Assembly (NCBI GenBank): GCA_964016885.1
Contig: OZ024741.1
Coordinates: 219,728,001 to 219,792,000, forward strand
DNA from: Eledone cirrhosa
Taxonomy: Eukaryota
Length of the DNA stretch: 64,000 nt
Direction: 5' to 3'
This document shows, in pieces, positions 1,541-18,960 of the stretch. A program made the translations under genes and the position numbers. The notes beneath the pieces were generated by a model that saw only the letters and a list, made by a program, of their open reading frames with translations, did no database searches and was not told the DNA's origin. Position 1 is the first letter of the stretch. Each line of letters begins with the position of its first letter.

Positions 1541-1736
1541 CTGTTTCGAAGACAATATTGTACATTTATTAAGAGAGAGAGAGAGAGAGAGAGAGGGGGG
1601 ATGTAGAGCAAGAGAAAGAGAGGGGTAGAGAGAGGGAATATATAAACCAAGGTCAAATAGTTTGGAAGCCAATCATAAGAAAAATATCTACTCCTACTTT
1701 AGGCTCTCTTTCTCTTTCTCTCTGAGATGATGTGGC

Positions 1737-1950
1737 TGAGTGGTTAGATAATTGGATTCACAATCTTGAGGTTGTGAGTTCGATTCCTGGACCGGGCGAT
1801 GCGCTATATCCTTGAGCAAGACACTTTATTTCACACTGCTCCTTCTACCTGGAGTTGCGACCGATAGATAGTATTAGCAATTGGAAAAAGTGTTACCAAC
1901 GGAAAAAGTGTTCCCCCGGTCCGATTTGACGAAAGTCGATCGTTCCTAAA
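1737..1950 (+). mobile_element. Second tRNA-derived SINE type (related heads at ~1235-1320 minus and 55705-55915 minus)
   Basis: A-box tggctgagtgg and B-box gttcgattcc followed by ccttgagcaagacactttatttcac. Confidence 0.7.
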
Positions 1951-1994
1951 AATATATATATATATATATATATATATATATATATATATATATA

Positions 1995-3884
1995 GTGAAA
2001 GAATGAAGAGTAGCATGGTTGGCTGTACAACAAGGGGCTTTATTTCAGGTAATGACAATTACTCCATTGATCAGGTGAGTCTAGGGGTCGCTAATCGCTC
2101 CAAGTTGCGTCACTCGATCTCCATTACATTATTTACCTCTGACCAACTCCTCAGAGTACAAAAACAATTCACTCAAGCAAGATATATATCGAGAAATAGC
2201 GTATAATCAAAACATCAATAATAAAATATATATGATAAATAGGTAGAGAAGTTACAGATGTAAAAAGTAAAAAGTAAAAGATAAGAAAAACGATACAGTA
2301 AAAAAGTAAGAAAATGGAAAAATAATACAAATATAAAGAAATAATGATAAGTGAGAGCATGTAAGTACAAAATATGATAGTGGTGGTGGTGAGTTAGTGT
2401 TCGTATAAGGATTCTGTGGTGGGTTTAGTGCTAACATGAAAAGTCATATTCGAGACATGCATAGATGCGTGTAGAGAGACTGAGGTAGTGACAGATAAAA
2501 GAAAAAGCAATACATTAGAAATTAATTGGGTGATACTAGTATGAGATTTAAGGGCTAAGGGTGGATGGTGAAGGGAGGTTTGACAAATGTGTGTGGTAAA
2601 TCTTTTGCTGATTGTCTTGTCTTAATGGGGTTGAGGGTGAAAGTGATGTTAAGAGATTTATGATCCAGTGACCAGTTGGCCATTTGACAGCTAATAGTGA
2701 TGGTGTGAATTCCATGCGTTAAAATCCAGGTGGTTCAGTTCTAATTTTGGGATTGCTGACTCGAATCATGGTGGTTTGAAATTTGTGAACTTGGTAGCTA
2801 TTTTATGCCTACAGAAAATTGATCTTTCTATTTTGCTGTTAAGCAGCATATTATCGTATCTTAAAATATGGAATAGATCCATATTACAAAGTCCGCAGTG
2901 GGACATCCCATTGCTGTAGGCCGTTGCTTCCGATAATTTTGACCAGCTAATCCTATATTCCTGGTTTATGTTTTTAAGCTGTCAGATTTTATTGGCGATT
3001 ATACGCCGTGAACTGCACAAAAAATACAAAAAACAACAACAGAATCTGCACTCACTAGCATTAATAAGGAAGGACTTAGCATAGTAAACAAACTGAAAAT
3101 ATCTGATAGAACCGAGCCTCTAATCCCTTGTAACCCCACATTTAACCTAAAGGATCACAAAAATAATTTCGAAATGGTCCCCGCATTTAGATTAATATGC
3201 GCATCGAAGTCGGATATAGGTAGAATTAACAATATATACTAGATAGAATAATCGCACAAATCAAGGACAAACTAGTAATTAAGCTATGGGGTAACCCCAA
3301 CGAAGGAATAGACTGGTTCAGCAAAATAGACAGTAGAGAAACATCCAACTTCGTACAGTTCGACATTAATGACTACTACTCATCCATATCCCCAGTCACC
3401 CTATATAAAGCTCTAACCTTTGCCCAGAAAAATTCGGGTCTTACCTTGGACAAATTAAAATAATACTAGCTGCTAGGAGAACTATCATTACATTCGAAAA
3501 TAGTTACTGGGAACGAAAAAACAGACAGAATAGCTTCGATATCACAATGGGATCTAACGACTCAGCACAGGTGGGAATATATATAGCGCACAACTTACAT
3601 AAGGAATTGAATAACCTCCAGGGAGGAATTTATAGAGACGACACACTCCTTTTAGCCAAAAACTTAAATAATCAAAACATGGAAAAATTACGAAAAACAT
3701 CAGTCTTCTTCAACAAACTAAGCCTAGGTATCACTTTCGAACTTAACTCTAAAAAGCAAACTTCTTAAATATAACACTCAACCTAAACACAGGATTAATA
3801 GAGCCCTTCCATAAAAATAACGAGAATCTAGCCTACATTAGTTATAACTCAAACCACCCCCGATCCATAATTTACTCCATAGCA
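1995..3884. mobile_element. Partial PLE: inverted 3' end/pLTR (1995-2998, minus) joined to decayed RT (3000-3884, plus)
   Basis: MGSNDSAQV..GGIYRDD RT motifs; the 1995-2998 segment repeats directly at ~48835-50058. Confidence 0.85.
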
Positions 3885-15861: not shown

Positions 15862-18720
15862 TTAATATTTTTTTAAGGCAACGCTTGTAATAACTCTAGT
15901 TAAACAGGATATATATTAATAATAAATTATCGTTGTAATGTAATTAGATTATGTAATTGTTATTATAAATTATCTTATAAATATTAGTGTAAGATGTATA
16001 AAAATATTTTCAGACTTTTAATATAAACAACTACAAAAAACAATCAATATTAAATCAATATATTATACATAATAGAAAACATAAAATATACAATACAAAA
16101 ACAAAATATTTACATACAATTGCAATTATCAGTGTATATACATTTTCTTTATATTCCCTGAGCAAATTAATAAGATTTGTTTTTATTGTACATAATTTGA
16201 TGACTTGTTGGAGTGTATTAAAAGATAGCAACAATTTGTGATTAAATTGTTATCTTAAGCAACTCACTTTTTAATAGTTGTTGGCTGAGCGAAATTGTAA
16301 AAGCCTATGAGCAAATATAAAAAAAAATACACAAACAACATTTCCTTGTGTTATTACAACATTAGATAAAATAATTGAGCAATGTCGTTATATTTTGCTC
16401 TTATTGCACATTAATAGTGTTTCTATTTTTCGGCACAAATCCATTACGGCAGTCCATTACTGGTACTTTATTTTATCGAATTAGTAAGTATGAAAGTCGA
16501 AGTTAACCTCGGCAGGATTTGAACTTAGAATGCAAAGGACCATAACAATACTGCAAAGCATGGTGTCTGACGCTCTACCAATACTTGTGTTGAGCTGGTC
16601 ATTAATTTATGGTGGTCGTGCGTGGAGTAGAGCAATCGCTAGTTGAAATATTATGAACAAAACATTTTTATTTGCCGAAGAACATATTTTCAATACTGTT
16701 TGTGAATGTGACGAAGGAAATACATTCTGATATGGAACAGTGTACAAAGTGTGTCTGTGAATAACATAATGTTACCTCATGTTGTTGTCAAGACATAATG
16801 GATTTCGTATATCCAGTTAGAAGATGAAACCTAGCCATCTCGGATTAGTTATATTTCATGCCATGTGTAAACGTGTTTGAGGATAGCAAAATATGCGCGT
16901 TAATTATAATAATTAGTTAATAATATTGCAAAATATACCTAATTAAACTCTTTGCTTGAAATTTTATCATTCTTCGTTTATATATATATATATATATATA
17001 TATATATATATATAGAGAGAGAGAGAGAGAGAGATTTATCTAGTCCTTCGCTCAAGATTAATCTATAAGTTTAGATGTTTGCCTTCGTTTAAGTAAATAT
17101 TACAGTAAGATTTTTAATATAAACAACTACAAAAAACAATTAATATTAAAACGAAAAAATTATCAATGATAAAAGAAGCGGATGCAACTTTTTTTTTTAT
17201 AAAGTTATATTCTTGTTTCTTTAAAGAACATTTCATTTTTGTTCTATTGTAGGCGAAATAATGCAATGGTTTAATAGGGAAGATATAACTTACCAATTAT
17301 GTCTCTAACCGTGTAACGCTTTTTAAGTAGATAACTACAATTGAAAATACTAAAGAAATGGAACCAACAATTCAATTTGAAAGTCGTCTAGTGACAGTGT
17401 ATTACTGGTACTTTATTTTATCGACCCCGTAACGATGAAAGGCAAAAATGCAAATGCTTAAAATTTAAATTGCCTTAATTCTATCGTCTGCTGTTTCATT
17501 AAAGGGAGATTATCGTCTGTATTTAATTCTATCGTCTACTGTTCCACTAAACAGATATACCTCCACTATCGTCTCTATTTATACATTTTAACTTATAACT
17601 TATACACATTTGATTTGAAATATTTTATCTAGTCCCCCCTCTCAATATTATGATGATTTCTTTCGAATGAAACAGTTCTAGTCCTGTAGAAGCCATTTAT
17701 ATATATAATTGAACTGAGTTAAAAATTCACAATATTTATAATTAAATAAGCTCATATGTGTGTATTTATCTGTTTATTGTATTATATATAATGTGTGTAT
17801 ATACAGGATGTCCCCCAAAAATATATACACACTTCAACAGCATTCTAATAACTATTGCATGTACAGATAATCAAAGTGTCAATCGAATGTTAGTTTCGTG
17901 TTTAACAGTACAAATTTACAATACACACATAAAACCAGTGTATATACATACATGAGTGTGTATACACATACATGAATGTGTATATACAATATATATGTAT
18001 ATATATATAGACACATATATTCACGGTGCAACGGAACATTAAAATATAGATGCGGGGGGGGGGTGTATTTATAGGGGCGCTGGGGATAAAGGAGTGTAAA
18101 GCGTAAGTGTGTAATTGATATATTGAAGGAGAGGAGCGTGCAGCGATAGAGTAACAAATATATAGAGAGGGGGAGAGATGGTATTGAAGGGGAGGAGTGC
18201 AAAGCGAAAGAGTAAGAGAGATATATATAGAGACGGAACAGATAGAGAGAAACAGGCGTAAGTAACAGTGGAAGAGATATAGAGAGAGGGGGTAATAAAT
18301 AAATGGAAATATAAGTGTAACAGTATAAGAGATATATAGAGAGGGGGAAATGTGTTATTGAAGGGGAGGAGTGTAAAGCGAAAGCGTAAGATATATATAG
18401 AGAGAGGGGGAATAGTATATATATATATATATATATATATATATATATATATATATCAACACTTACTCTGATTGGTTGAAAATTAGCCAATGACATACGA
18501 TCACCACCACCACGGCTATCCCCGAAAATTTTTTAAAGAAGCTAGGCATATATGTTAGAACACGAAAAGTGAACATTCTGTTGTTTCACACTTTTCGTGT
18601 TCTAACAGATATGCATATATATATATATATATAATGAAAAATTGAACAGGGACAGAACAGAGAGGCAGTACGATAAATGTTTATTAAATTCACGCTCAGG
18701 AGAGGGGGGGGGGTAGGGGG

Positions 18721-18758
18721 GGGGCGACGCTTCGGGCATAAGCCCTTCTTCAGGTGAG
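18721..18758 (-). ncRNA. Decayed minimal hammerhead motif
   Basis: cac-CTGAAGA-a-GGGC ttat GCCC-GAAG-cgtc; GAAA changed to GAAG, weak stem I. Confidence 0.5.
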
Positions 18759-18960
18759 AAGTGTATGGGAACAGAGTTCAAAAGGTGTGTAGGGGAGTGG
18801 TGGAGAGACATATAGCGAAAGGAAACGGTGCGAATGAAAAATTAACAAATAAAGACAAATATATATATATATATATATATATATATATATATATATATAT
18901 ATATATATATACACACACACATATGCGCCGTAGATATATAGTGTGACAGTATACGCTCAC

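Follow-up and report, generated by a model that had tools for sequence, protein, structure and literature searches.

This locus raises the question of whether a tandem array of hammerhead ribozymes (HHRs), lying within an intron in the sense orientation, cuts the transcript of its host gene or is a passenger in it. The window is the whole stretch of 64,000 nucleotides that was analysed, and the assembly searched for related copies comprises 3.0 Gb. The array is most probably a young insertion of a 310-nt non-LTR retrozyme family. It likely entered a TA microsatellite through a borrowed Penelope-like enzyme, and chance likely accounts for its location and orientation in the intron. The features are listed in Table 1.

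Table 1. Coordinates of the host gene, the array and the neighbouring elements in the window.
Feature	Position	Strand	Characteristics or evidence
Host exon, C-terminal part of VWD domain	1373..1540	-	Pfam, homologue alignment
Host intron	1541..18960	-	17,420 nt, GT...AG, phase 1
Solo hammerhead of another family	6834..6873	-	CUU triplet, palindrome AGUACU
Older Penelope-like fragment with GIY-YIG domain	7078..9200	+	GIY-YIG E 1.2e-4
(TA)n target at array 3' end	9209..9273	.	Repeat and locus comparison
Non-LTR retrozyme array	9264..13300	-	13 x 310 nt, GC 34.5%
Thirteenth hammerhead	9387..9429	-	Core at 9423 is CUGAAAA (G8A), predicted inactive
Twelve intact minimal type I hammerheads	9697..13149	-	GUA triplet, descriptor match
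Older RT fragment	13301..13850	+	85-91% to nearest copies; adjoins array 5' end
Repeat of ~440 nt	13849..14290	+	93-97% to many copies; mutated hammerhead core at 14205
Host exon, middle of VWD domain	18961..19069	-	Homologue alignment
Host exon, start of VWD domain	22100..22287	-	VWD E 4.6e-7
Solo copy of older sister family	39864..40078	-	Degenerate helix I; carries the 40030 motif
Host exon, EGF domain	40892..40996	-	EGF E 1e-5
Host exon, cysteine-rich, upstream of EGF	43495..43556	-	Homologue alignment

Host gene

The host gene had been placed on the minus strand with five in-frame exons in an earlier note, and this was confirmed. The five exons in the window encode 210 amino acids without a stop when joined, with GT at all five donors and AG at the four acceptors checked, and the gene is of the EGF-VWD-C8 type. 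Pfam applied to four exon pieces returned VWD in two (one above the cut-off), EGF in one and no domain in one. The homologues were obtained by HMMER search; a single-exon query among longer proteins had found none. The five-exon protein aligns to the EGF-VWD homologues P0126 and P0080 at 32-33% identity, and because the exons align almost without gaps to both, no exon is hidden in the array intron. Two further introns of the gene measure 18.6 and about 22.6 kb and are as long as the array intron.

Additional exons with matching phases were identified upstream (one, at ~+66.2 kb) and downstream (three, at ~-1.0, -3.2 and -7.9 kb), and we read the one at ~-7.9 kb as C8-like. When a profile built from the first 1300 residues of ten homologues was run over the 132 kb that follow the C8 exon, it gave no further exons, and the genome-wide VWD search gave no additional VWD exon near the host gene. 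This leaves the 3' portion of the gene untraced and gives no indication that the gene is broken. Read set X1 was considered as RNA and rejected, as it covers intron and exon alike, has no splice joints and behaves as DNA. Read sets X4-X6 gave scattered short matches only.

Array and its hammerheads

Tandem Repeats Finder reports the array with a period of 310, 13.1 copies and 99% matches. The array 3' end lies at unit position about 130-139, where it enters (TA)n, and its 5' end lies at unit position 123. The unit shows no protein ORF, its six-frame translation being full of stops. The H17 sites are found at 13113, 12803 and so on to 9703, spaced by 310 nt, with the thirteenth at 9393. The 13 minus-strand array hammerheads claimed earlier are therefore present as 13 sites with GUA, but only 12 of these consecutive units carry an intact motif. 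Each motif has a helix I of 6 bp, the core CUGAAGA, a helix II of 4 bp on a U-U pair and then GAAA; helix III is the palindromic ACGCGU, which gives a one-pair helix III with a palindromic tetraloop.

The array was missed by a descriptor that disallowed the U-U pair and was recovered after that pair had been relaxed, at a background of 0.04 matches per shuffled window (4/100 shuffles, one each). Rfam at the gathering score gave no match for the array hammerhead, and its best Rfam match, HH9, is weak (E 0.35). Non-LTR retrozymes are expected to have units of about 150-450 nt and GC under 45-50%. By its unit length, GC, hammerheads, lack of an ORF and dispersed copies, the array is assignable to this class from its sequence features.

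In the window array, variants reappear at a spacing of 4 units, which indicates that it grew partly by local duplication, here likely of four units. Among the variants of this locus are 54G and 255T. The array is one-armed and ends at the short site. No target duplication was identifiable at its flanks, and no contig bridging the junction at 13300 was found among the matches listed.

Both flanks of the array are occupied by older elements. The 3' end of the Penelope-like fragment with the GIY-YIG domain meets, in our reading, the same (TA)n as the array. The RT fragment on the other side is presumably also Penelope-like, a clade label given from its motifs; it was considered as a co-inserted young partner of the array and rejected, its nearest copies being only 85-91% identical. 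The mutated core in the adjoining repeat of ~440 nt reads CUGGUGA on the plus strand, inside the same intron. A possible PLE remnant, the antisense frame that ends in GLNALK, was dropped because it is short, stop-bounded and unsupported.

Strand distribution of hammerhead motifs

The earlier note had described a battery of sense-strand motifs in one intron, with the 13 array hammerheads and six others on the minus strand. The minus-strand motifs at 6835, 22630, 35024, 40030, 40150 and 44711 exist, but two have defects: the 6835 motif carries a CUU triplet, and the 40030 motif has an intact core with a mismatched helix I and fails the descriptor. The motifs at 22630, 35024, 40030, 40150 and 44711 sit in introns other than that of the array, so that only the array and the weak 6835 motif are sense-oriented in the array intron. 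Plus-strand motifs at 35560, 40373 and 61304 had been missed, and these are the inverted twins of the motifs at 35060, 40206 and 61169. The mutated plus-strand core at 14205 had likewise been overlooked.

With the array counted once, 12 intact motifs lie on the plus strand and 11 on the minus strand over 264 kb (p = 1.0). The traced gene holds 7 sense and 3 antisense intact events (p about 0.34), and the four motifs directly past its last traced exon are all antisense. When degenerate motifs are included, the window shows a mild minus excess (11 minus, 5 plus, p about 0.21). A bias towards the host sense, as in a co-opted intronic ribozyme, was not found (12 vs 11; 7 vs 3). Across the 264 kb, helix III is self-complementary in most motifs but differs from family to family, which would fit selection for dimers.

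These counts bear on the reading that the host has recruited the sense-strand motifs to regulate its gene. The intact gene frame, the mild local sense excess and the precedents of CPEB3 and the amniote intronic hammerheads described in PMC10919898 and PMC6765202 are in its favour. However, the insertion is very young (units 99-100% alike each other and those of other loci), it already carries one dead core and one 10-nt deletion, the family is estimated to occupy a couple of hundred loci like it, and the remaining motifs belong to several repeat families of different ages. Co-option of the battery is extremely improbable, and a selected regulatory role of the array itself is hardly credible.

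Repeat family across the genome

The exact 33-nt hammerhead is present in 987 copies in the assembly (334 plus, 653 minus), compared with 0 for the control. The first 100 motif places in chromosome order form 29 loci over 355 Mb, of which 15 are two-stranded, and the family is estimated at roughly 250 loci if the spread is uniform. A search with the unit yielded 237 matches from the 40 candidates scored out of 434. The locus sample consists of the 34 other loci among 150 listed matches and is biased to the best matches. Among the best-scoring loci, which are biased young, 83 of 142 full units have exactly the sequence of one unit in the window, and the mean difference is 0.8 per 310. The insertion is considered recent because the divergence of the array from other loci is near zero.

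The solo copy that carries the 40030 motif comes from a sister family of greater age, whose copies share 91-94% identity (40 scored of 1604 candidates). No literature on the 310-nt family or on retrozymes driven by host introns was found in a search that covered few subscription papers, and supplements may list such families.

Insertion anatomy and the Penelope-like signature

Two-armed structures with the 3' ends outward are found at 26 of the 34 loci, and the other eight are one-armed. In 23 of the two-armed loci the arms stop at different unit positions, one at 132-139 (short end) and one at 165-174 (long end); the remaining three have a short internal piece as their second arm, and ends of the same class are paired in 0/26. 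The short and long ends are offset by about 26 nt (about 26-35 nt), and the two ends of the sister family, at 212 and 186, have the same 26-nt offset. The outer ends nearly all enter (TA)n, and one locus enters (ATT)n. An intact motif is present on both strands in 22/34 loci, and two or more on both in 8/34.

PLE insertions have been reported with an inverted copy (the pLTR arm), a one-sided tail of 30-40 bp and AT-rich or (TA)n targets (PMC8557442). Reverse transcription by the purified Anolis PLE is reported to start at two adjacent internal sites downstream of the hammerhead, with both nicked strands extended (PMC11167929). The two-ended, tail-out insertions at (TA)n match this Penelope-like tail signature at the sequence level. 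No autonomous PLE partner sharing the 310-nt unit was found, the PLE ORFs in the window being without the unit.

The array may instead be a Penelope pLTR stump that was amplified in place as a minisatellite, with inert hammerheads and no circular RNA. Local duplication is indeed indicated by periodic variants, which also recur 10 units apart at locus L021; local amplification is favoured by the Xenopus preprint (bioRxiv 2026.07.22.740005), and PLE insertion in vitro is reported in PMC11167929 to proceed without need of hammerhead cleavage. This is at odds with the same 310-nt register at 34 unlinked loci of about 98-100% identity, often in both arms, and with the lack of a PLE ORF consistently in register at any locus. 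At locus L022 one variant is present in all six pieces covering its position, in both arms, as would be expected from a single template. The unit also folds far better than its shuffles (z -3.68; 0/100 shuffles as stable). Amplification in place is very improbable on these grounds.

Under the preferred reading of a retrozyme insertion, the template would be a circle or a multimer because the ends lie inside the hammerhead-to-hammerhead monomer and the arms span several units. Multimeric RNA from some locus would be cut by double hammerheads between neighbouring units, and a host ligase would close the monomers into circles. The (TA)n would be nicked by a Penelope-like RT/GIY-YIG protein, and reverse transcription would begin internally at two points, 130-139 and 165 nt beyond the cut, and run round the circle or along the multimer. 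Unequal crossing-over may later lengthen some arrays. The lack of an autonomous partner, the mild minus excess in the window, the one-armed window array and a site distance close to that of CPEB3 are counted against the preferred reading as a whole.

Folding and cleavage prospects

Folding was predicted with ViennaRNA, in which core and tertiary energies are ignored. The hammerhead motif misfolds in the prediction of a single-unit RNA. For a two-unit RNA, the double hammerhead gives -93.2 kcal/mol, the free fold -93.9 and two monomer hammerheads -72.9. The double hammerhead costs 0.7 kcal/mol over the best fold at 37 C and 2.3 at 12 C, while two monomer hammerhead folds cost 21-27. Neighbouring units are thus predicted to form a double hammerhead, and cutting of the host pre-mRNA is possible on this model.

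Host transcription had been expected to produce the multimeric precursor. The array is sense-oriented and would be crossed by Pol II if the gene is transcribed, but the strand agreement that had been advanced for this is within chance. It is conceivable that the double hammerheads then cut within minutes and that circles are released or spliced mRNA is lost as an unselected by-product. Besides the sense orientation with 12 intact sites and the double-hammerhead fold near the predicted energy minimum, the unit sense strand is without AATAAA, ATTAAA or GTAAGT. The twelve sites lie 8.2-11.6 kb before the acceptor, or ~2-3 min at the mammalian rate quoted in PMC10919898, and the distance to the next exon is CPEB3-like: that ribozyme lies 9.9 kb ahead of its 3' splice site and is reported to affect splicing (PMC10919898). 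According to Fong 2009 (as cited in PMC10919898), intronic ribozymes lower splicing only if they are fast, and ribozyme release of retroelements from intronic co-transcripts is described in PMC6765202.

Against this, the one-pair helix III and the U-U pair under helix II are both weak features of the axolotl motifs reported in PMC7229834, and in the three-unit partition function the first two helix I pairs and all of helix II have probabilities of <= 0.07. The Anolis PLE hammerhead was reported to be cut only with protein, with 0 RNA-seq reads ending at its site (PMC11167929), and the host gene frame is intact as far as traced. Cutting and release from the host transcript as such a by-product is unlikely.

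Co-transcriptional cutting is possible but would depend on the cleavage rate, and the published rates span the whole range. Coral retrozymes are reported to be cut almost completely in 5 min, and many invertebrate retrozymes are fast (PMC7229834). Minimal PLE hammerheads showed little cutting even as dimers (PMC4209133), and 8/9 Xenopus retrozyme dimers were uncut in vitro according to the preprint (bioRxiv 2026.07.22.740005). From these comparisons, cutting before splicing is probably too slow, or requires the Penelope protein, for much effect on the host. The fast invertebrate retrozymes and the axolotl motifs with weak features, which are cut poorly as monomers (one 22% in 1 h) and far better as dimers (PMC7229834), are counted against this view. 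Measurable cutting of the host pre-mRNA is a serious though doubtful prospect, and the array is likely a tolerated passenger in the host gene.

Comparison with known systems

The array resembles the metazoan non-LTR retrozymes (Cervera and de la Pena 2020, PMC7229834; Li et al., bioRxiv 10.64898/2026.07.22.740005), which are described as dispersed tandem units of 150-450 nt and low GC with a type I hammerhead each and no ORF. The insertions of the family differ from those descriptions in the PLE two-ended tail anatomy with multi-unit arms. The family shares with the PLE insertions (PMC8557442) and with Anolis Poseidon PAc (PMC11167929), as described there, the AT-rich or (TA)n targets, the inverted 5'-truncated arm and two internal 3' ends downstream of the hammerhead, whereas its unit is without RT or endonuclease, its offset is about 26-35 nt and no partner element was found.

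The one-pair helix III with a palindromic tetraloop, the U-U at the helix II base and the dimer-dependent design are shared with axolotl HHR_Amex1/2 and the minimal PLE hammerheads (PMC7229834, PMC4209133). In contrast to these motifs as reported, both weakening features are combined in one motif here. A sense-strand motif several kb before the next exon is shared with the intronic ribozymes (CPEB3 HDV-like, amniote hammerheads and the synthetic ones of Fong 2009; as cited in PMC10919898 and PMC6765202). The natural ones are described as single, conserved motifs, whereas the array is a young multi-copy transposon insertion without sign of conservation.

Implications

Intronic retrozymes and intronic ribozymes have already been described, with 42-44% of Xenopus retrozyme copies being intronic according to the preprint (bioRxiv 2026.07.22.740005), and the array is, as things stand, an unremarkable intronic copy of an element class that is already known. 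What makes it worth attention is its family, which is very young and whose insertion ends agree with the pair of RT initiation sites determined for a Penelope-like enzyme. The insertion anatomy supports, at the genomic level, the proposed and as yet unproven mobilisation of animal retrozymes by Penelope-like elements.

Should the array cut the host pre-mRNA, the locus would offer a naturally occurring case in which to examine how exons are joined over a severed intron. A wider reading, which we regard as quite improbable, is that the family lacks its own promoter and uses intronic sense arrays as source loci: the multimer made by host Pol II would be cut by double hammerheads before splicing, the exons would be joined across the severed intron, and the circles would be primed twice by the Penelope enzyme, at fixed sites, from both strands of the TA target. 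If this source-locus reading is true, splicing of cut introns and rolling-circle retrotransposition could both be studied in a natural experiment that comprises a couple of hundred near-identical loci.

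Repeats in the window

The window contains another hammerhead motif family and several further repeats (table below). Both composite repeats contain a 40-nt minisatellite, a DNA-transposon-like fragment, and Penelope-like pieces. Older repeat families share the tail-out anatomy of the 310-nt retrozyme, with many short inverted duplications between (TA)n. The 703-residue frame is taken to be of the Penelope-like RT plus GIY-YIG type from its motifs, and the Pfam search of this frame returned no match.

Features of the window and its neighbouring sequences (L055, downstream of the window exons; L103, offset +103,280)
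Feature	Position	Strand	Remark
Hammerhead motif family	44717-44782 and 46423	-	Long helix II insert, three-pair helix III
Composite repeat, copy 1 of 2	about 1950-5900		Related to copy 2, opposite orientation
Composite repeat, copy 2 of 2	about 48900-55700		Related to copy 1, opposite orientation
LINE-like endonuclease/RT fragments	27048-30710	opposite strands	Tail-to-tail pair
Numerous short inverted duplications	about 6500, 36960, 40290, 41810, 43900; further at +103,280 (L103)		Near-perfect, (TA)n on flanks
Presumed Penelope-like RT + GIY-YIG-type frame	57725-59833	+	703 residues without stop
C8-like exon, host gene	L055:1932-2120	-

Host gene, 3' part

The C8-like exon has two possible ends: a GTGCGT donor, or a stop codon reached by reading on for ten more codons. 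Across 132 kb, no exon beyond this one was found.

Distribution of the retrozyme

A 342-nt contig in X4, the sequencing run from another organism that was compared with window positions 12995-13900, matches the complete 310-nt unit from head to tail with approximately 97% identity. X4 is nearly devoid of the short repeats that are abundant in the Eledone cirrhosa genome. The contig could be an RNA circle, DNA of a relative, or a transferred family.

The exact matches of the 33-nt hammerhead in the whole Eledone cirrhosa assembly are unevenly divided between the strands (653 minus versus 334 plus). This skew suggests that at least one very long array is present among the 887 places beyond the first 100 listed. 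Such very long arrays would be possible source loci of the retrozyme family.
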